A stretch of 64,000 nucleotides of DNA from Squalus acanthias (taxonomy: Eukaryota), in the NCBI GenBank assembly GCA_030390025.1, contig CM059432.1, positions 73,162,001 to 73,226,000 of the forward strand, given 5' to 3'. A program made the translations under genes and the position numbers. This document shows positions 2,787 through 55,939 of this stretch, in pieces. Position 1 is the first letter of the stretch. Each line of letters begins with the position of its first letter. The notes under the pieces were generated by a model. The model was given only the letters and a program-made list of their open reading frames with translations. It did not search any database and had not been told where the DNA came from.

Positions 2787-3269
2787 CATGCAAATTAGAT
2801 ACCCTCGCATTGACCCTCACAAACCCTGGCAGGGTAAACGATGGAGGCTACTGGTGGCGCAAACTGGGTCCTGTGGATTTTCAGGCCCTAAGTCTATAGA
2901 ACAAGTTCAAAGAATTATGGGTACTTAACAAAGCATTTTGCTGACCTACTTGTAGCAGTTACTTAACTCCAGCAGCTACAACAGCATATTATGTTTCCCA
3001 GGCATGTAGGTGTACTCTAGTTAAACTAAGACCATTATACAATCCAATCAATCTCCTGAGTAAAGATTCTGAAGATATTCTCCCTCACCCCCAATATTAA
3101 ATTCAGCAAAGCTCTAGAATACAGAACTGACTTTACATTACGTGTTATACATTGTAGACCAGTTGCCTTCCTTGGCATGATAGTTCCATAGTCTCAGCAG
3201 CTGAGGAACCATCATTAACACACAGTATTTAGTGATCTTTATCGATACTTATCCTTATAACCCTCAGTT

Positions 3270-5933: not shown

Positions 5934-6127
5934 GATAGCAAAATACTGCAGATGCTGGAAATCCGAAATAACAACAGAAAACGCTGGAAAAACTCAGCAG
6001 GCCAGGCAGCATCCGTAGAGAGAAATGAAAGGTCTGATGAAAGGTCATCGACCTGAAACGTCAACTCTCTTTCTCTCTCTACGGATGCTGCCTGGCCTGC
6101 TGAGTTTTTCCAGCGTTTTCTGTTGTT
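5934..6127. mobile_element. Penelope pLTR-derived fold-back mini-element with 17-bp TSD
   Basis: Inverted arms ~5968-6024 and ~6073-6129 match the Penelope 3' end at 24804-24862. ATTAGTGATATCAGTAC at 5917-5933 and 6128-6144. Confidence 0.9.
6030..6066 (+). ncRNA. Minimal hammerhead ribozyme motif (Penelope-type)
   Basis: CTGATGA (6034-6040), stem II AGGTC-ATC-GACCT, GAAAC (6055-6059), GTC cleavage triplet (6060-6062). Stem III is the palindrome ACGT. Confidence 0.8.
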
Positions 6128-6310
6128 ATTAGTGATATCAGTACAATTGCCATTTGCTTGGAATTCAATGGGAAATACAGAAAACCCTGCAGGCAGTAAT
6201 TGACCCACAATGGGCTTGTCAGATTTAACTCTTTTGCTCTTGCATTCTGGAATCAGTGGGTTAATCTTTCCTATGGCTTGTGCATGTCTTATTCAATGAC
6301 TTTTAGGAGG

Positions 6311-18026: not shown

Positions 18027-18938
18027 TCATGAATGAGTCTGACTCACTGCTGCATCTGCTTCCTGTTCTTCATGGACCTGGTCTTTAGCATCAACAGTAT
18101 CATCATCAGGGATATCTACCATCAGTCCTTTCGTGATTGCAAAGTTATGAAGCATATAACATGCTACCATAATCAGTGAGACAGTGCTGGATACATACTG
18201 CAAGGTATCATCAGACTTATCCAGACACCAGAATCTTCCTTTGAGCATTCCAATGGCTTGCTTAGTTCTTATCCTTACCTTCATATGTGCGTCATTGTTG
18301 AACTTCTTTGCAGCAATGATGGTCCTATGAAGTGGCATGATGAGGCATAGGAGTAGCGGGTATCATTTGTCATCCAGCACCCATCCTGCCCCTTGCCCCA
18401 CTGTTGAAATTGAGCTCACATACTGGACAGCTTCCAGATTATTGTGAATTTACATATCGTAAGCTGTGCCTATTGTTGGAAATGAGCTGCACATTTAGTG
18501 AATGGAAGCTTTTGTGGTTTATATAAATATGGGGGTTCACATTTTGGGCTCGCAATGCCACATGGCTACAATTAATAGCCCCCACGGCCTTGGGGAATCA
18601 GGAAATTCTGAAAAATGTTATGGTTCTCTCAGTCATCTGTGTGGGAGCACTGTTGAATTGTATAAACTGAGCTGCCCTGGAAAGAGGGCATTGGTGACTT
18701 GCTTATAGAGAAATGCATGGCAAATTAGCTGATCCGGCAAAAGTTCTCTATAGCTCCCTGTGGTGTAAAAGTTGAGAGTTGTGATCAATATTCCTGTGAC
18801 AGTGAGAGCCTTCTGTGCTGTGGGGTTTTGTTGCAAATCTGGCTGCAGCAATGAACTGAGCTCGTCCAAAGCTTCATGACTGAGGACAGAACTCCTGTGA
18901 AAGGTCTGGAAAAGTGTGCCTAGGTTACATAAGAACAT
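18027..18938 (-). pseudogene. Harbinger/HARBI1-like DDE transposase, frameshifted
   Basis: FNNDAHMKVRIRTKQAIGMLKGRFWCLD and IMVACYMLHNFAI match the HARBI1-family C-terminus; ITTLNFYTTGSY matches the N-terminal HTH region. Confidence 0.85.
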
Positions 18939-19258
18939 AAGAAATAGGAGCAGGAATAGGCCATACGGCCCCTTGAGCCTGCTCTGCCATTCAATAAGAT
19001 CATGGCTGATCTTCTACCTCAACTCCACTTTCTCACCCTATCCCCATATTCCTTAGTGTCCAAAAATCTATCTACCTCAATCTTGAATATGCTCAATGAC
19101 TGATCATCCACAGCCCTCTGGTGTAGAGAATTCCAAAAATTCACTACCCTCTGAGTGAAGAAATTTCTCCTCATCTCAGTCTTAAATGGCCAACCCCTTA
19201 TCCTAAGACGATGACCCCTAGTTCTAGACTCTCCAGTCAGGGGAAATAGCCTTTCAGC
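18927..19258 (-). mobile_element. CR1 3' terminal fragment inserted in the Harbinger transposase
   Basis: Closely matches 1079-1410, including the (TTCTTATG)n tail. Confidence 0.9.
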
Positions 19259-19839
19259 CCATTGTGCAGCCTTTAGATACTAGCTCTCTTTAAATACAAT
19301 GCTCTCCAAGAATAATGTAGAATGTAGATGAAGCTTCCTGTATACAACAATGGCATTTTTTCCCAATACCTGCAATCAGTCCTAAGATATAGCCAAAAGT
19401 CTCCAGAAGCAATCTCACTTTAGCAGTTTCCCTTTAACAAGTACTTCTGTCTTGATAAGCAGGTCCTAAAAAACGGTCTTTTAAATAGTGGCACACAGGT
19501 ATTATAGGAAGTCAGAATTCACAGTGATGCCATCTTGTCCTAACTGATTTACACGTGGCTGCCACTGTGAGGACGGGGCACTTCTTCAGCGCATCCTGAA
19601 ACTTAATGGGCTGCTTCTGGGGTGGAAACCCTGTGGCCGACCCAACCTAAATTCCTGCCCCATAAAGGTGCATCTGCGGACTTACGGCCTCCCCGATTGA
19701 AGCATTTTGGGACCATGGTATATAGTAATCTTTTAGTCATCTTTATGTTAATTATGTAAATATTGACTGGACAACTGAATAGGGAACTGAAGAAAAGATT
19801 AGTGAAGAGTTTGATAGAGTGTGGTGCTGCAACATGGAT

Positions 19840-20108
19840 TTTTTTAAATTCATTTATGGGATGTGGGCGTCGCTGACAAGGCCAGCATTTATTGCCCATC
19901 CCTAATTGCCCTTGAGAAGGTGGTGGTGAGCCGCCTTCTTGAACTTCTGCCGTCCACGTGATGGTACTCCCACAGTGCTGTTAGGTAGGGAGTTCCAGGA
20001 TTTTGACCCAGCGACGATGAAGGACGGCGATATACTTCTAAGTCAGGATGGTGTGTGACTTGGAGCGGAACTTGGAGGTGGTGGTGTTCCCATGCGCCTG
20101 CTGCCCTT
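19840..20108 (-). mobile_element. 3' fragment of the tRNA-headed CR1/Zenon-like LINE
   Basis: Matches 51821-52090 (GGGCAATAAATGCTGGCC...GACGCCCACATCC tail). Confidence 0.9.
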
Positions 20109-20109
20109 G

Positions 20110-41432: not shown

Positions 41433-41810
41433 GGGGGGTGATTTTTACTTTAAGCACTAAAGAGCCTCCGAGGTGGCCAAGATGGGGATTTGAGATGCAA
41501 CTCCGGTTTAGCCCACCGTTAGTGCAAGACGCCATCTTGGTAAAGGAGTTGAAGTGCACGCTAGGAATGGCCGCCCAAGGATCATTAAGGCTCTGATTGC
41601 CAATTAAATTGCCGGAGTGATTATCTGCACGAACATTTTTGTGGCTTTCTGCACACACGCACGGCATCCGGAGCCGCGCATGCATACCCGATCCCCCTCT
41701 GCACATGCACGCTGTTTACCGAGGTCATGCATGCGCAGTACCCAACAGTTGTGGCCTGCAGTAGGCCACGCTTTAGTCAGCTCCATGGGAGAAGGTCACT
41801 GGATCTATGC
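41433..41810. mobile_element. Harbinger-like element left end preceding the GA array
   Basis: Starts GGGGGGTGATTTTT; CpG-rich subterminal region with GCGCATGC motifs like the MITE at 49987. Confidence 0.5.
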
Positions 41811-41814
41811 TGGC

Positions 41815-42018
41815 CAGGGGAAGGAGAGGATCGAAAGGGGAGAGAGAGAGGGAATTGGAGGGGGGTGGGGAATGGGATTGGAAAGGGAATCGGAGGGGGA
41901 GAGGGAAAGGGAGAATCGGAGGGGGAGAGGGAGAATTGGAGGTGGAGAGAGTGTGAATTGGGGGGAGAGAGAGAGAATTGGGGGGAGAAAGAGAATCGTG
42001 GGGGGAGAGAGAGAGAAT

Positions 42019-42059
<41 letters not shown>

Positions 42060-42960
42060 ATTGGAGGGGGAAGAGGGAATCGGAGGGGGGAGAGCGAGTG
42101 TGAGAATCGGAATAGAGAGAGAGAGAGTGAATTGGAGGGGAAAGAGGGAATCAGAGGGGAAAGGGAATCCGAGAAGAGAGAGAGTGAATCTAAGGAGGGA
42201 GAATGAGGGAATCGGATGGGGAGAGGGAGGGAATCGGAGGGGAGAGAGAGTGGGAATCGGAGAGGGAAGAGAATCGGAGGGGGGGAGAGAGAGAGAGAGA
42301 AATGGAGGGGGAGAGAGAGACGGATCGGAGGGGGATAGAGAGGGAGAATCGGAGGGGAGAGAGAGAGGAAATCGGAGGGGGGAGAGAGAGAATCGGAGGG
42401 GAGAGAGAGAGGGAGAGAGAGAGAGAGAGAGAGAATCGCAGGGGGGAGAGAGAGGGTGAATCGGAGGGGGGGGAGGAAGAGGGAATCGGAGAGGGGAGAG
42501 AGAATTGGAGGAGAGAGAGAGGGAATCCGAGAGGAGAGAGAATAAGAGAGGGGTGAGAGAGAATCGGAGCGGGGAGAGGGAGGGAATCGGGGGGGGGAGA
42601 GAGAGAGGGAAATGGAGGGGGGGAGAGAGAGGAAATCGGAGGGGAGAGAGTAGGAATCGGAGAGGGGAGAGAGAGAGAGAGAGAGAGAGAGAGGGATTGG
42701 AGGGGCAGAGAGGGAGGGAAATGGAGGGGGAGAGAGAGGGATCGGAGGGGCAGAGAGAAAGGGGATCGGAGGGGCAGAGAGAAAGGGGATCGGAGGGGCA
42801 GAGAGAAAGGGGATCGGAGAGGGGAGAGGGGAGAGGGGAGAGGGGAGAGGGGAGAGGGGAGAGGGGATCGGGGGGAGAGAGAGAGTGGATCGGGGGGAGA
42901 GAGGGAATAGAGGGGGGAGAGAGAGGGGATCAGAGGGAGGAGAGAGAGAGGGAATCGGGG

Positions 42961-43004
<44 letters not shown>

Positions 43005-43423
43005 CGGAGGGGAGAGAGAGAGCGAGCGAGAGCGAGAGCGAGAGCGCGAGAGCGAGAGCGAGAGAAGAGAGAAGGAATCGGAGAGGGGAGAGAGAGAATC
43101 GGAGCGGGGAGAGGGAGGGAATCGGGGGGGAGAGAGAGGGATCGGAGGGGGAGAGAGAAAGGGGATCGGAGGGGAGGAAGAGAGAGGGGATGGGGAGAGA
43201 GAAGGAGAATCGGAGGGGAGAGAGAGAGGGAATCGGAGGGGGGAGAGGGAGAGAGGATTGGAGTTGGGAGCGAGGGAGTGGATCAGGGGAGAGAGGGAAT
43301 CGGAAGGGGAGAGAAAGAGGGAATTGGAGGGGAGAGGGGGAATTGGAGGGGGGAAAGAGAGAGCGAGAGAGAGCGCGAGAGAGAGAGCGCGAGAGCGCGA
43401 GAGAGAGAGCGCGAGAGCGCGAG

Positions 43424-43454
<31 letters not shown>

Positions 43455-44104
43455 ATCAGAGGGGGGAGAGAGAAGGAATCGGAGAGGGGAGAGAGAATCG
43501 GAGCGGGGAGAGGGAGGGAATCGGGGGGGAGAGAGAGGGATCGGAGGGGGAGAGAGAAAGGGGATCGGAGGGGGGGAAGAGAGAGGGGATGGGGAGAGAG
43601 AAGGAGAATCGGAGGGGAGAGAGAGAGGGAATCGGAGGGGGGAGAGGGAGAGAGGATTGGAGTTGGGAGCGAGGGAGTGGATCAGGGGAGAGAGGGAATC
43701 GGAAGGGGAGAGAAAGAGGGAATTGGAGGGGAGAGGGGGAATTGGAGGGGGGAAAGAGAGAGCGAGAGAGAGCGCGAGAGAGAGAGAGAGAGAGAGAGAG
43801 AGAATCAGAGGGGGGAGAGAGAAGGAATCGGAGAGGGGAGAGAGAGAGAATCGGAGCGGGGAGAGGGAGGGAATCGGGGGGGAGAGAGAGGGATCGGAGG
43901 GGGAGAGAGAAAGGGGATCGGAGGGGGGGAAGAGAGAGGGGATGGGGAGAGAGAAGGAGAATCGGAGGGGAGAGAGAGAGGGAATCGGAGGGGGGAGAGG
44001 GAGAGAGGATTGGAGTTGGGAGCGAGGGAGTGGATCAGGGGAGAGAGGGAATCGGAAGGGGAGAGAAAGAGGGAATTGGAGGGGAGAGGGGGAATTGGAG
44101 GGGG

Positions 44105-44135
<31 letters not shown>

Positions 44136-44150
44136 GGAGAGAGGATCGGA
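41815..44150 (+). repeat. Polypurine (GA-rich) complex array with GAATCGGAGGGG subunits and ~350-400-bp higher-order repeats
   Basis: GAGTTGGGAGCGAGGGAGTGGATCAGG recurs at ~43261, 43660 and 44013; interspersed (GA)n and (GAGC/GAGA)n tracts. Confidence 0.95.
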
Positions 44151-44949
44151 GGGGGAGGAGCTCAGGAACTCTAGGGGAGAGGAGGTCAGGTACTCGGGGT
44201 GGAGGGAGGGGTAAACAGCACGGAGAGCAGAGTGGGGATGGGAGCAGAACGTGATCCAGGTCTAAATGGGGGAGGGGGAATGAGAGCGAGAACGTGATCC
44301 AGATGGTAAGACGGATCATGTTTTTCCAACCCCACCCCCTTTACACCCGTACCACATTCTCCTTCTCCTCTCCCGAGATCTGGTTGGTTTCTCGGAAAGC
44401 TCGGTGCGTGTGTGGCAAGTGACATCATTGGACTGGATGAAATCCGTAAGTCATGATACTGTCACTATTCACTTCATACCCAATGAACCTGTTAACAATC
44501 CGTGACGCACACACAATGCCCCATCTATGGAGGGTGGGGGGATGGTCAGGATATTGTTGGGGGGAGAAGGGCATGAACCTGGAGGGGGAGGAACTTGGGC
44601 AGGGGGAGGAGGTCAGGAACTTGGGCGTCGGGGGCGGGGGGGGGGGCGCAGGTCAGAAACTCGGGTGGGGGGAGGAGGTCAGGAACTTGTTGGGGAGGGA
44701 AGAGGTCAGAAACTCGGGGGTGTGAGGATGGTTAGGAACTTGTTTGGGGGGGGTGGAAGAAAGTCTTAACCCATGAGGATGAGCCCTGTCTGTTCTATGT
44801 GAGCTCTGTTCTGTCTAGAGCAAGGCAGTCAGAAAGGCTCGAATTACACTTTGCTAAGTAATTGATTACTTAGGCAGGCAGGATCTAATTGCATATTCCA
44901 GAGAAATTACTGGGTGTGTCTTGTCCTCCAAGGGGACCAATCAGAAATC

Positions 44950-46657: not shown

Positions 46658-49650
46658 CTAGGAGTTCCAGGATTTTGACCCAGCAACGATGAAGAAACAG
46701 CGATATATTTCCAAATTAGGATGGTGTGTGACTTGGAGGGGAACTTGCAGGTGATGGTGTTCCCCTGCCGGCCTTGTCCTTCTAGGTGGTAGATGTCGCA
46801 GGTTTGGGCGGTGCTGTCGAAGAAGCCTTGGTGAGTTGCTGCAGTGCATCTTGTAGATGGTACATACTGCAGCTATGGTGTGCCGGTGGTGGAGGGAGTG
46901 AATGTTTAAGGTGGTGGATGGGTTGCCAATCAAGCGGGCTGCTTTGTCCTGGATGGTGTCGAGCTTCTTGAGTGTTGTTGGAGCTGCACTCACCCAGGCA
47001 AGTGGAGAGTATTCCATCACACTCCTGATTTGTGCCTTGCAGATGATGGAAAGGCTTTGAGGAGTCAGGAGGTGAGACACTCACTGCAGAATGCCCAGCC
47101 TCTGACCTACTCTTGTAGCCACCGTATTTATGTGGCGGGTCCACTTAAGTTTCTGGTCAATGGTGACCCCCAGGATGTTGATGTTGATAGGGGATTTGGC
47201 GATGGTAATGCCATTGAATGTCAAGGGGCAGTGGTTAGACTCCCCTCTCTTGTTGGAGATGGTCATTGCCTGGCACCTGTGTGTGCGAATGTTACTTGCC
47301 ACTTATCAGCCCAAGTCTGAATGTTGTCCAGGTCTTGCTGCAAGCGAGCAGAAATTGCTTCATTATCTGAGGAGTTGCGAACGGAACTGAACACTGCAAT
47401 CATTAGCGAACATCCCCACTTCTGACCATATCATGGAGGGAATGTTATTGTTTAAGCCAGTGGAGAGTTTTCCCCCTGATTCCCATTGATTTCAATTTTA
47501 CTCAGGATCCTTGATGCCACACTTGATCAAAAGCTGCCTTGATGTCAAGGGCAGTCACTCTCTCCTTTCCTCTGGAATTAAGCTCCTTTGTCCATGTATG
47601 GACCAAGGTTGTAATGAGGTCTTAAGCCGAGTGGTCCTGGCAGAACCCAAATTGAGCATCGGTGAGCAGGTTATTTGGTGAGTAAGTGCCACTTGATAGC
47701 ACTGTCGATAACATCTTCCATCACTTTGCTGATGATTGAGAGTTGACTGATGGGGCAGTAATTGGCCAGATTGGATTTGTCCTGCTTTTTGTGGACAGGA
47801 CATACCTGGGCAGTTTTCCACATTGTCGGCTAGATGCTAGTGTTGTAGCTGTATTGGAACAGCTTGGCTAGAGGTACGGCTAGTTCTGGAGCACAAGTCT
47901 TCAGCACAACAGCCGGGTTATTGTCGGGGTCCATAGCTGTTGCTCTATCCAGTGCACTCAGCCATTTCTTGATATCACGTGGAGTGAATCGAATTGACTG
48001 AAGACTGGCTTCTGTGATGGTGGGGCCTCCAGGAGGAGGCCGAGATGGATCATCCATTCAGCACTTCTGGCTGAAGATGGTTGCAAATGCTTTAGCCTTG
48101 TCTTTTGCACTTGTCTGCTGGGCTCTGCCATCATTGAGGATGGGGATGTTCATGGAGCCGCCATCTCCCGTTAGTTGTTTAATGGTCCACCACCATTCAT
48201 GATTAGGTGTGGCAGGACTGCAAAGCTTTGATCTGATCTGTTGGTTGTGGGATTGCTTAGCTCTGTCTATAGCATGCTGCTTCCACTGTTTAGCATGCAT
48301 GTAGTCCTATGCTGCAGCTTCCCCAGGATGGCACCTCATTTTTAGGTACGCCTGGTGCTGCTCCTGGCATGCTCTTCTGCACTCCTTATTGAACCAGAGT
48401 TGGTCGACTGGTTTGATGGTAATGATAGAGTGAGGGATATGCCGGGCCATGAAGTTACAGATTGTGGTAGAATAAAATTCTGCTGCTGCCGATCGCCCAC
48501 AGCGCCTCACGGATGCCCAGTTTTGAGCTGCAAGATCTGTTCTGAATCTATCCATTTAGCACAGTGGTAGTGCCACACAACACGATTGAGGGTGTCCTCA
48601 GTGTGAAGACTGGACTTCGTCTCCACACGGACTGTGCAGTGGTCATTGTTGCCAATACTGTCATGGACAGATGCATCTGCAACAGGTAGATTGGTGAGGA
48701 CGAGGTCAAGTATGTTTTTCCCTCATGTTGGTTCTCTCACCACCTCCTGCAGGCCCAGTCTGGCAGCTAAGTCCTTCAGAACTCAGCCAGCTCGGTCGGT
48801 AGTGGTGCTACTGAGCCACTCTTGATGATGGACATTCTGTGCCCTTGCTACCCTCAGTGCTTCTTCCAAGTGGTGTTCAACATAGAGGAGTACTGATTCA
48901 TCAGCTGAGGGAGGGCGGTAGGTGGTAATCAGCAGGAGGTTTCCTTGCCCATGTTTGACCTGATGCCATGAGACTTCATGGGGCCTGGAGTCAATGTTGA
49001 GGACTCACAGGGCCACTCCCTCCCGACTGTATACCACTGTGCCGCCACCTCTGGTGTCTGGAACACTGGCTGAAAGGTCTGATTCTGTGAGTATGACGAT
49101 GTCAGGCTGTTGCTCAACTCTGTTTCTCTCTCCACGGATGTTGCCTGGCCTGCTGAGTTTTTCCAGCGTTTTCTGTTGTTATGTTGCTTGACTAGTCTGT
49201 GGGACAGCTCTCAATTTTGGCAAAAGTCCCCAGATGTTAGTGAGCAGAGTTTGCAGGGTTGACTGGGCTGGGTGTGCCTTTGTTGTGTCCAAAGCCGGTG
49301 CCTAGGTCAATGCCGGGTGGTTTGTCCGGTTTTCTTTTTTTTGTAACAGTTTGTTACAACTGAGTGGCTTGCTAGGCCATTTCGGAAGGCAGTTAAGAGT
49401 CAACCACATTGTTGTGGGTCTGGAGTCACATACAGGCCAGACCAGGTAAGGATGGCAGATTTCCTTCCCTAAAAGGACATTAATGAACCAGATGGGTTTT
49501 TAAAACAATCTGGCAGTTTCATGGTCACCATACTAGCTTTTTATTCCAGATTTATTTAAAAAACTGAATTTAAATTCCACAGCTGCCATGGTGGGATTTG
49601 AACTCATGTCTCCGGATTATTAGTCCAGTAACATAACCACTATGCCACCC
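46658..49650 (-). mobile_element. CR1-group (Zenon-like) LINE copy 1 with tRNA-like 5' head; decayed, 3' tail missing
   Basis: ORF fragments VLKTCAPELAVPLAKLFQYSY and ICKAQIRSVMEYSPLAW; collinear with 51821-55815. A box 49637-49647, B box 49594-49605. Confidence 0.9.
49115..49181 (+). mobile_element. 67-bp Penelope pLTR fragment inserted in the LINE
   Basis: TSD TGTTGCT (49108-49114, 49182-49188). Empty site GTCAGGCTGTTGCTTGACTAG is present in copy 2 (~55306-55326). Confidence 0.92.
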
Positions 49651-49986
49651 TACCCACATAAAATAGTGGTGGGCAGTCTGAACTTGGCTACCTGGTGAAA
49701 TTTCTAAACTTTTTCCGGACTTAGATCTATGTCCTCTAGGTGTTGCTTTGAGCATTGATGTGTTCGGCTATCTCCTGGTTGATTTTTGCTCTGTGGTGTC
49801 AAGGATGACTTGCTTCAGCAACACTTCTGTTGAAGCACCATTAAACTCTCTTTTCCATCAAAATGCACAAGAAAATTGAAACAAGAAATTTTTATCGGCA
49901 GAAAAGCCTTCCCATTTAAAATGGATTAAAGTGTTACAAGATATAGTCACCATTAGCCCCTTCATTAATGCATGTTGTAACATATA

Positions 49987-51820: not shown

Positions 51821-54800
51821 TTTTTTTATTTGTTCATGAGATGTGGGCGTCGCTGGCAAGGCCGGCATTTATTGCCCATCCCTAGTTGCCCTTGAGAAGG
51901 TGGTGGTAAGCCGCCTTCTTGAACCGCTGCAGTCCGTGTGGTAAAAGTACTCCCACAGTGCTGTTAGGGAGGGAGTTCAGTATTTTGACCCAGCGACGCT
52001 GAAGGAGCGACGATATACTTCAAGTCAGGATGGAATGTGACTTGGGAGGGGAACTTGGAGGTGGTGGTGTTCCCATGCATCTGCTGCCCTTGTCCTTCTA
52101 GGTGGAAGAGGTCGCGGGTTTGGGAGGTGCTGCCGAAGAAGCCTTGGTGAGTTGCTGCAGTGCATCTTGTAGATGGTACACACTGCAGCCACAGTACACC
52201 GGTGGTGGAGGGAGTGAATGTTTAAGGTGGTGATGGGGTGCCAATCAAGTGGACTGCTTTGTCTTGGATGGTGTCGAGCTTCTTTAGTGTTGTTGGAGCT
52301 GCACTCATCCAGGCAAGTGGAGAGTATTCCATCACAATCCTGACTTGTGCCTTGTAGATGGTGGAAAGGCTTTGGGGAGTCAAGAGATGAGACACTCGCC
52401 GCAGAATACCCAGCCTCTGACCTGCTCTTGTTGCCACAGTATTTATGTGGCTGGTCCAGTTAAGTATCTGGTCAATGGTGACCCCCCAGGATATTGATTG
52501 TGGGGGATTCGGCGAGGGTAATGCCGTTGAATGTCAAGGGGCGGTGGTTAGACTCCCGCTTGTTGGAGATAGTCATTGCCTGGCACTTCTGTGGCGCGAA
52601 TGTTACCTGCCACTTATCAGCCCAAGCCTGAATGTTGTCCAGGTCTTGTTGCATGCGGGCATGGACTGCTTCATTATCTGAGGAGTTGTGAATGGCACTG
52701 AACACTGTGCAGTCATGAGCGCACATCCTCATTTCTGACCTTATGTTGGAGGGAAGGTCATTGATGAAGCAGCTGAAGATCGTTGTGCCTAGGACACTGC
52801 CCTGAAGAACTCCTGCAGCGATGTCCTGGGGCTGTGATGATTGACCTTCAACCACCACAACCATCTTCCTTTGTGCTTGGTATGACTCCAGCTAGTGGAG
52901 AGTTTTTTCCCGATTCCCATTGACTTCAGTTTTACTAGATGCCACACTCGGTCAAATGCTGCCTTGATGTCAAGGGCAGTCACTCTCACCTCTCCTCTGG
53001 AATTTAGCTCCTTTGTCCATGTTTGGACCAAGGCTGTAATGAGGTCGGGAGCAGAGTGGTCTTGGCGGAACCCAAACTGGGCATCAGTGAGCAGGTTATT
53101 GGTGAGTAAGTGCCACTTGATGGAAGCTGTCATGAACAGTGCTATCACTTTGCTGATGATTGAGAGTAGACTGATGGGGCGGTAATTGGCCGGATTGGAT
53201 TTGTCCTTTTTGTGGACAGGACATACCTGGGCAGTTTTCCACATTGTCGGATAGATGCCAGTGTTGTAGCTGTACTGGAACAGCTTGGCTAGAGGCGCGG
53301 CTAGTTCTGGAGCACAAGTCTTCAGCACGATAGCCGGGATGTTGGCGGGTCCCATAGCCTTTGCTGTATCCAGTGTGCTCAGCCATTTCTTGACATCACG
53401 TGGAGTGAATCGAATTGGCTGAAGACTGGCTTCTGTGATGGTGGGGACCTCAGGAGGAGGCCGAGATGGATCATCCACTTAGCACTTTTGGCTGAATGCA
53501 GTTGCAAATGCTTCAGTCTTGTCTTTCGCACTCACGTGCTGAGCTCCACCATCATTGAGGATGGGGATATTCATGGAGCATCCTCCTCTTGTTAGTTGTT
53601 TAATGGTCCACCACCATTCACGACTAGATGTGGCAGGACTGCAGAGCTTTGATCTGATCCGTTGATTGTGGGATCGCTTAGCCCTGTCTATAGCACGCTG
53701 CTTCCACTTTTTAGCATGCATGTAGTCCTGTACTGCAGCTTCCCCAGGTTGGCACCTCATTTTTAGGTATGCCTGGTGCTGCTCCTGGCATGCTCTTCTA
53801 CACTCCTTATTGAACCAGGGTTGGTCCCCTGGCTTGATGGTAATGGTGGAGTGAGGGATATGCCGGGCCATGAGGTTACAGATTGTGGTGGAATACAATT
53901 CTGCTGCTGCTGATGGCCCACAGCGCCTCATGGATGCCCAGTTTTGAGCTGCTAGATCTGTTCTGAATCTATCCCATTTAGTACAGTGGTAGTGCCACAC
54001 AACACGATGGAGGGTGTCCTCAGTGTGAAGACGGGACTTCGTCTCCACAATGAGTTTTAAAGAGTGTGCAGGGACAGAGAGACCTGGAAGGTAATGTGCA
54101 TAGGTCCCTGAAGGTGGCGGGACATATTGCGAAAGTGGTTAGCAAAGCATATGGGATCTTGGGCTTCATAAATAGATTTATTGAGTACAAAGTTAGAGAA
54201 GTTATGCTGAACAGTTATAAAGCGTTGGTTAGGCCACAACTGGAGTACTGCGTCCAGTTCTGGTCACCACACTTTAGGAAGGATGTGAAGGCTCTTGAGA
54301 GGGTGCAGAGGAGATTTACCAGAATGGTTCTGGGGATGGGGGATCTTAGCTACAAGGACAGGTTGGAGAAGCTAGATTTGTTTTCATTTGAGCAAAAGGA
54401 GGTTGCAGGGTGATTTGATAGAGATGTACAAGATTATGACGGGTTTGGATAGGCTAGACAGGGAAAGGCTGTTCCCACTAGTTGATGGTACAAGAACTAG
54501 GGGACACAGATTTAAGGTTTTGGGCAAGAGATACAGGGGGGATGTGAGGAAAAACTTTTTTACGCAGCGAGTGGTGAGGACCTGGAACTCGCTGTTGACG
54601 GAAGTGGTGGAAGCGGAGACACTCAATGTTTTCAAGGGGAGACTGGATAGGCACTTGAGGGAAATACACTTGCAGGGCTATGGGGATAGAGCGGGGGAAT
54701 GGGACTGGCTGGATTGCTCTACAGAGAGCTGGCACGGACTCGATGGGCTGAATGGCCTCCTTCTGTGCCGTTATGACTCTATGACTGTGCGGTGATCACT

Positions 54801-55815
54801 GCTACCAATACTGTCACGGACAGATGCATCTGTGACAGGTAGATTGGTGAGGGTGAGGTCAAGTAGGTTTTTCCCCTCGTGTTGGTTCTCTCACCACCTG
54901 TCGCAGGTATGTCCTTCAGGACTCGGCCAGCTCGGTCAGTAGTGGTGCTACCGAGGCACTCTGGGTGATGGACATTGAAGTCCCCCTCCGAGAGTACATT
55001 CTGTGCCCTTGCTACTCTCAGTGCTTCTTCCAAATGGTGTTCAACATGGAGGAGTACTGATTCATCAGCTGAGGGAGGGTAATCAGCAGGAGGTTTTCTT
55101 GCCCATACTTGACCTGAAGCCATGAGACCTCGTAGGGTCCGGAGTCAATGTTGAGGACTCCCAGGGCCACTCCTTCCCGACTGTATACCACTGTGCCGCC
55201 ACTTCTGGTGGGTCTGTCCTGCCGGTGGGACAGGACATACCCAGCGATGGTGATGGAGGAGTTTGGGACATTGGCTGAAAGGTATGATTCTGTGAGTATG
55301 AATAGGTCAGGCTGTTGCTTGACTAGTCTATGCGACAGCTCTCCCAATTTTGGCACTAGTCCCCAGATGTTGGTGAGGAGGACTTTGCAGGGTCGACTAG
55401 GCTGGGTGTGCCGTTGCCGTGTCCGTAGTCTGTGCCGAGGTCGATGCCGGGTGGTCCGTCCGGTTTCATTCTTCTTATTGTGTTTCGTAGTGGTTTGTTA
55501 CAACTGAGTGGCTTGCTAGGTCATTTCAGAGGGAAGTTAAGAATCAACCACATTGCTGTGGGTCTGGAGTCACAGACCAGGTAAGGACAGCAGATTTCCT
55601 TCCCTAAAGGACATTAATGAACCAGATGGGCTTTTACGACAATCCGATAGTTTCATGGTTACCATTACTGATAGTAGCTTTTTTATTCCAGATTATTTAA
55701 TTAACTGAATTTAAATTCCCCAGCTGCCATGGTGGGATTTGAACTCACATCTCTGATCATTAGCCCAGGCTTCTGGATTACCAGCCCAGTGACATTACCG
55801 CTATGCTACCGTTCC
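51821..55815 (-). mobile_element. Full-length CR1-group (Zenon-like) LINE copy 2: tRNA-like head, APE-RT, 3' tail; interrupted by a CR1
   Basis: APE motifs TNIWGL, ILTESYL, GDFNVHH; RT motifs YRPISLLSIISKV, QFGFR, ALDIKAAFDRVWH, GVLQGSVLG; C-terminal YKAQVRIVMEY. A box 55798-55808, B box 55735-55746; A-rich tail. Confidence 0.92.
54054..54784 (+). mobile_element. CR1 3' fragment nested in LINE copy 2
   Basis: LVRPQLEYCVQFWSP and RGHRFKV motifs; tail TATGACTCTATGA; ATGA at both junctions. Confidence 0.93.
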
Positions 55816-55939
55816 CGTAATTCTTGAATATGGCACTGTAATGGTAAAATATGACAAATATAAACTACTAAATAATTGGCATTCACTAGAAAGATATCAA
55901 GAATGAGTAGTTATAGTTGAAAGAAAGGCTCAAAGACTT

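Follow-up and report, generated by a model that had tools for sequence, protein, structure and literature searches.

A Zenon LINE of sharks and rays whose head is tRNA-derived and whose sense strand is T-run-depleted: a likely coding element of RNA polymerase III

The divide between long and short interspersed nuclear elements (LINEs and SINEs) is drawn at the polymerase: for coding LINEs the transcribing enzyme is RNA polymerase II (Pol II) and for non-coding SINEs it is RNA polymerase III (Pol III), for which a run of T is the stop signal. A LINE of the Zenon family in a 64,000-nucleotide stretch of the Squalus acanthias genome (GCA_030390025.1, contig CM059432.1, positions 73,162,001 to 73,226,000; the window) carries features of both classes. 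It has a head with A and B boxes at a precise 5′ end, one open reading frame (ORF) for an apurinic endonuclease-like domain and a reverse transcriptase (APE-RT), a strand-specific loss of T-runs, an AATAAA signal with poly(A), and short derivatives made of its head and tail.

Parts of this anatomy are known from other elements. The lepidopteran Zenon/BmCR1B is described with a similar layout of a single ORF, a 312-nt 5′ untranslated region (UTR), a 53-nt 3′ UTR and poly(A) (PMC1925062). Its deletion derivative Persaeus illustrates the recurrent birth of head-to-tail deletion derivatives, as here, but differs in lacking, by its description, both tRNA homology and a Pol III promoter (PMC6740152). 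The T+ SINEs B2, Dip and Ves likewise run from a tRNA head to AATAAA, a variable T-run and an A-tail (PMC8466645); they are short and non-coding, whereas in the Zenon element the same anatomy encloses a 973-codon ORF. SINE2 elements with bipartite RTE/Vingi bodies also combine a tRNA head with 5′ and 3′ LINE parts, but in the model given for them the head joins after the LINE has lost its ORF, whereas here it sits on a coding element (Kojima 2018, PMC5786205). A single sentence of that paper mentions LINEs containing tRNA-like sequence, RTE-1_DAn and relatives, which are a possible precedent. No description of a Pol III-transcribed LINE was found in the literature searched, with Repbase, Dfam and most subscription journals outside the search. 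R2 is alike in being a LINE translated from a non-Pol II transcript without a standard start; it differs in being co-transcribed with rRNA by Pol I and released by a ribozyme, with no promoter of its own. By the searches made, the Zenon family and its lack of ORF1 are known, and the SINE-type promoter, the T-run loss, the T+-like end and the SINE offspring are not found in print.

The window holds two long copies and two truncated ones, with the following parts (T4 is a run of four T in the sense strand, T4+ four or more; the consensus is introduced below).

51821..55816, minus strand: copy 2, a full-length Zenon LINE of ~3.27 kb, interrupted by a nested insertion; identity to the 18-copy consensus 95%
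55731..55816, minus strand: copy 2 head, derived from a tRNA, with the A box at 55808-55798 and the B box at 55746-55735
55498..55730, minus strand: remaining 5′ leader of copy 2, AT-rich; the consensus has two AATAAA-type hexamers here and no T4
55467..55469, minus strand: conserved AUG, in +1 phase to the long ORF, opening a 48-codon overlapping frame in the consensus
51882..55497, minus strand: decayed single APE-RT ORF, interrupted in copy 2 by stops, frameshifts and the insertion
54054..54782, plus strand: 3′ fragment of an ordinary CR1, ~730 nt, nested antisense in copy 2 and not the element's own
51821..51881, minus strand: short 3′ UTR of copy 2, with AATAAA at 51873-51868 and an A7 tail
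46661..49654, minus strand: copy 1, more diverged (90% to the consensus), with a short-spacer head and its 3′ end missing
49584..49654, minus strand: copy 1 head, derived from a tRNA, with the A box at 49647-49637 and the B box at 49605-49594
49116..49182, minus strand: an unrelated repeat, 66 nt long, inserted into copy 1
19839..20109, minus strand: 5′-truncated family copy, the last ~275 nt, ending in T3 and then poly(A)
37363..37432, plus strand: 5′-truncated family copy, the last ~70 nt

An in-frame TAA at 55500-55498 closes the leader of copy 2 and is also the cut point of most of the SINE-like derivatives described below. Copy 1 has lost ~120 nt internally and stops ~150 nt before the tail.

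Both long copies are worn members of a 3.3-kb, poly(A)-tailed, ORF1-less LINE already catalogued as elasmobranch Zenon (PMC13343379). Stuart et al. 2026 report it from five elasmobranchs (SquAca_Zenon-1 and the CarCar, RhiTyp, ScyCan and HypSab Zenon-1) as more than 84% alike, ORF1-less, poly(A)-tailed and absent from repeat databases. Compared by eye, SquAca_Zenon-1 agrees with the present consensus over its first 400 nt, and the lengths are 3314 and 3317 nt. The word 'tRNA' occurs 0 times in the main text and the available supplement text of that report and 'polymerase III' 0 times in its main text; the head, Pol III, the T-run loss and the SINE derivatives go unremarked there. In the available text of a whale shark preprint, CR1-Zenon is named once, without tRNA or Pol III. 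The absence of ORF1, on which the initial annotation of the window had laid weight, is correct but is a general Zenon trait (PMC13343379), and it therefore contributes nothing to the case for Pol III.

The consensus was built from the 3.7-Gb genome. A query of head plus leader gave 8986 first-look candidates, 40 of which were scored, and 28 of the 29 other top loci run on into APE sequence beyond nt 580. This query contained the ORF start, which biases the sample, and a search with APE sequence only was made as the unbiased test (39 non-self matches, upstream DNA fetched for 20). Sixteen of 20 head-anchored full-length loci, the other four being excluded for large indels, and the two window copies yield a majority consensus of 3317 nt with a single 973-codon ORF from stop to stop; the copies are 94-97% identical to it, copy 1 90%. 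The ORF follows a 329-nt leader with no ORF1, the only other frame being the overlapping one of 48 codons. The full-length copies carry A-tails, as do most 3′ ends in a sample of 20; clear target-site duplications were seen in none of the 17 copies examined.

The protein has the APE and RT domains expected of Zenon. Pfam RVT_1 scores above its cut-off in two pieces, and the consensus has the APE motifs GDFN and SDH and aligns over its full length to proteins with PF03372/PF14529; the APE fragment of the window by itself gave 0 Pfam and 0 PDB matches. In an RT tree (FastTree, 76 RT pieces, no labelled Repbase references) the family lies far from the co-resident CR1 and adjoins a lancelet protein; its sister branch includes proteins of butterflies and beetles, with support of 0.5-0.9. 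Two scans of viral contigs found no relatives.

The tRNA-like heads seen on both window copies in the initial annotation are borne out. ARAGORN calls a tRNA at 49584-49654 in copy 1, and the Rfam tRNA model matches both heads at 26.6 and 24.2 bits, below its gathering score of 29 and over model positions 7-64 only. The spacer between the A and B boxes is 21 nt longer in copy 2 than in copy 1; across the family this spacer differs in both length and sequence and the boxes are retained, as expected of promoter boxes in DNA. The 5′ ends of the copies are precise and shared, and the leader, estimated at ~300 nt in the annotation and found to be ~330 nt, joins the APE-RT frame directly. The head is family-wide: 13 of the 20 APE-anchored copies extend to the B box and 7 are truncated in the leader or the ORF start, none continues upstream into an ORF1, and no other shared 5′ end was seen among them by eye.

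Exact leader-to-ORF junctions number 400 genome-wide, against 0 in the control. The A and B boxes begin all five published elasmobranch Zenon consensuses (four shark, one ray; first 400 nt, by eye), and are canonical in three and one base short in the ray (PMC13343379). A chance insertion of a SINE in front of a LINE, which the initial annotation had argued against from two copies, is ruled out by these junctions together with the five species' consensuses. Within the first 400 characters of each row of the same supplement, a canonical B-box 12-mer is confined to 3 rows, all of them elasmobranch Zenon, and two hagfish rows and one coelacanth Zenon row show by eye no such head and do contain T4+.

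The leader itself was compared with other repeats. A MetaSINE source was not supported: two bivalve MetaSINE alignments showed no likeness by eye, none of 4 short motifs occurs in their supplement, and the 66-bp Meta domain was not found after the head. Six short motifs had 0 matches in a hagfish SINE supplement, and the supplement of Kojima 2018 gave only one unrelated RTE motif. Covariation in the predicted leader RNA structure is -0.11, with two-sided change at 1 of 90 pairs, in sequences too alike for such a test. Summed contig depth peaks over the mid-leader (L036:675-786), with loose ends 5′ of positions 658-675; other repeats may share the mid-leader part under different heads.

The second line of evidence is the T-run content of the sense strand. 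The consensus contains 0 T4 against 14 A4, 11 C4 and 9 G4, in agreement with the annotation's proposal of an ancestor cleared of T4. In 17 copies T4 occurs at 0.13 per kb in the sense and 4.1 per kb in the antisense strand, and all seven internal T4 in these copies are private. Ten co-resident CR1 fragments have 32 sense T4 in 6285 nt (5.1 per kb), so the annotation's description of neighbouring CR1 as rich in such runs is accurate. For copy 2 it had counted one sense T4; the element's own sequence indeed has a single one, at 51946-51943, and two further T4+ lie within the copy's limits, in the nested CR1 that the annotation did not mention. The single T4 is absent from the related fragment at 19839-20109, and none of the six T4+ runs of copy 1 falls at the same columns in copy 2 or three other copies, as it had reported for the fragment and for copy 2. 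By eye, all five elasmobranch consensuses are free of T4 within their first 400 nt (PMC13343379).

The depletion is graded. Under synonymous shuffling the ratio of observed to expected runs of exact length is 1.06 for T1, 0.97 for T2, 0.52 for T3 and 0 for T4+. Broader counts give a strong signal: there are 5 runs of T3 or longer against 11.4 expected (P 0.003) and 1 window with four T in five against 5.7 (P 0.006), and TT spans a codon junction 8 times against 24.4, with 0 of 1500 shuffles as low. The growth of the depletion with run length accords more closely with avoidance of terminators than with a bias in dinucleotides. A plain TT bias was rejected on the normal level of isolated TT, though a first-order Markov null takes up most of the T4 signal. 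Among 80 metagenome relatives, 68 have ORFs long enough for the T-run test; their minima are 0.67 for junction TT, 0.81 for T3 and 3.0% for Phe, against 0.33, 0.44 and 1.85% in the element.

The 3′ end resembles that of a T+ SINE. AATAAA lies at position 3260 of 3317, ~50 nt ahead of the tail, and T4 is common nowhere but in the run directly before the tail. A fixed 3′ pattern, which also counts truncated copies and derivatives, finds runs of 1, 2, 3 and 4 or more T in 7822, 1906, 1190 and 2036 copies; T4+ thus occurs at 2036 of 12954 counted ends, for which growth after insertion could account. These lengths are similar to those of T+ SINE terminators, described as shortening and then lengthening again (PMC8466645).

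The element also has short offspring. A search with the head of copy 1 alone returns mostly short elements, and 8 of the 10 top non-self loci fuse the leader to the last 60-130 nt. Exact leader-to-tail junctions number 289 genome-wide, compared with 400 leader-to-ORF junctions, with at least five recurring types among 100 listed. Several derivatives retain the first bases of the ORF, which suggests an origin by deletion from the long element. At ~410-430 nt they are short and non-coding, as a tRNA-derived SINE (SINE2) should be; the long element shares the tRNA-derived A/B-box head at the 5′ end that defines this class and departs from it in coding. Four contig runs, from four organisms, cover all 30 bins, and at least three show head-to-tail joints; contigs are blind to start, strand and level.

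A further conserved feature concerns translation. An AUG in +1 phase to the ORF is present in 45 of 46 measurable copies (50 loci examined) and in all five published elasmobranch consensuses, where by eye its phase in the ray is unchanged despite a 6-nt indel (PMC13343379). It follows an unstructured A-rich stretch and is followed by a hairpin of -17 kcal near the APE start (consensus 358-504). The region is possibly a frameshift or re-initiation signal.

On balance we favour a model in which a Zenon ancestor acquired a tRNA-derived, SINE-type head, and in which Pol III transcribes the element and its RNA is translated uncapped and copied by its own product. TFIIIC and TFIIIB would set the start at +1, 8 nt upstream of the A box. 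Pol III would then traverse 3.3 kb, as the element has no terminator, and halt at the terminal T-run or the next genomic one, and the transcript would be polyadenylated through AAUAAA in the fashion of T+ SINEs. A little APE-RT protein would be made from the uncapped RNA, starting at a non-AUG codon or by frameshift or re-initiation from the +1-frame AUG. Through target-primed reverse transcription this protein would copy the RNA that encodes it, so that every full-length copy bears its own promoter, and an internal deletion that spares head and tail would create a SINE in one step. A whole life cycle on Pol III, with one uncapped, polyadenylated 3.3-kb RNA as both template and mRNA, a non-standard start tied to the conserved out-of-frame AUG, an origin before the shark-ray split and repeated birth of SINEs, has in our judgement a slightly better than even chance of being correct. 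The observations of the initial annotation are thus confirmed, and its reading of a Pol III-driven coding LINE is partly supported, by the T4-free consensus and the family-wide head; Pol III transcription itself is likely, as far as DNA sequence can indicate.

Several results weigh against this model. The lack of T4 is by itself weak evidence: 1.65 are expected under a synonymous shuffle that preserves codon usage (P 0.15) and 1.45 under the first-order Markov null (P 0.22), which absorbs most of the signal, compared with 2.6-2.9 under two position-frequency nulls (P 0.04-0.05) and 3.8 under base shuffling (P 0.017). The main result against taking the T loss as specific to Pol III is L181, a neighbouring-branch relative among a further 80 loci (L181-L260), with junction TT at 13 against 25.6 and ORF T4 at 1 against 3.8, and with T5 and T6 in its 3′ UTR; its upstream sequence is covered for 39 nt only. 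Several relatives of the element's own branch are low in Phe (1.5-2.6%), and the bias may therefore be in part older than the head. Paired A and B boxes lie upstream in 0 of 160 relatives' loci, which speaks for the model, but this negative is weakened by the many loci that lack upstream sequence. The head is no better conserved among copies than the ORF (mismatch 0.032 against 0.026), a figure that reflects decay after insertion and is not a strong test. The consensus ORF has no in-frame AUG ahead of codon 287. Finally, a single T stands at ~60% of the counted 3′ ends, and T-runs of T+ SINEs also lengthen after insertion by slippage (PMC8466645), which makes the support from the 3′ T-runs modest.

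These points leave room for other explanations. The element may be an ordinary Pol II product, as LINEs normally are (PMC5786205), its head serving as an RNA signal, for example a tRNA-like processing site at which the 5′ end is released from longer RNA (compare the R2 ribozyme), or contributing to a Pol II promoter, and its T-runs being lost for RNA processing or stability. Precise, shared 5′ ends suit this explanation, as does L181, which is partly T-depleted yet keeps T-runs in its 3′ UTR. A tRNA match without the acceptor stem suits it poorly, as do boxes that persist across a variable spacer and a depletion specific to T and graded by run length, and we regard it as unlikely. A historical accident is the least probable of the explanations considered: a SINE head would have joined a Zenon that was already T-poor, hitchhiking ever since, with the composition inherited as a mutational bias. 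The low Phe and T of nearby branches and the insignificance of T4 under the Markov null are in its favour, but the A and B boxes have been kept in four shark consensuses and one ray consensus (PMC13343379), T3 and T4 are depleted while isolated TT is not, and L080, of the same branch, is undepleted (junction TT 17 against 18.0).

The labour may also be split, with Pol III making the template from the head and the protein supplied in trans by capped Pol II read-through of copies in host genes; the long element would then be a giant SINE carrying its partner's gene. Head and T-run loss are explained equally well, no translation of an uncapped RNA is required, and trans-mobilisation is evidently efficient, given that non-coding derivatives have amplified. 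An intact consensus ORF, more than 84% alike over five species (PMC13343379), is nevertheless easier to keep if the copied RNA makes the protein, and the several AUGs and two AATAAA of the leader would hamper a Pol II mRNA; we consider this arrangement rather improbable. A Pol III-made template, common to the split arrangement and the favoured model, is quite probable.

If the model is true, a natural 3.3-kb mRNA made by Pol III breaks the LINE/SINE polymerase rule. It would provide a natural test case for how uncapped Pol III RNA is translated and show that a LINE can give rise to a SINE in one step. An element this compact, with a single ORF and driven by Pol III, would also be attractive as a tool for gene insertion.

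Other observations concern the relatives and the rest of the window. The lancelet protein P0022 has just 1.5% Phe despite high Lys, Ile and Asn; with L181, it indicates that T avoidance, and perhaps the head, may extend past sharks. The eighty contigs L181-L260 come from prokaryote genome bins and code for animal-type LINE proteins, and are probably host DNA binned together with symbionts. Relaxed ARAGORN calls on the 80 relatives were scattered and treated as noise; the one upstream of L075 was inspected, and that locus shows no T4 depletion. The short repeat inserted in copy 1 (49116-49182) recurs in the window at 24804-24904 and, as an inverted pair, at 5958-6139. A stop-free frame of 517 codons at 25217-26770 (minus strand), a putative Penelope-like RT plus GIY-YIG element, was used as a control for T4 and contains 3 such runs over its 1554 nt. 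Broken frames at 18027-19013 (minus strand) may represent a Harbinger-type nuclease. Positions 41800-44300 hold a degenerate tandem array, long and rich in GA, that includes nearly identical blocks of 300 nt.

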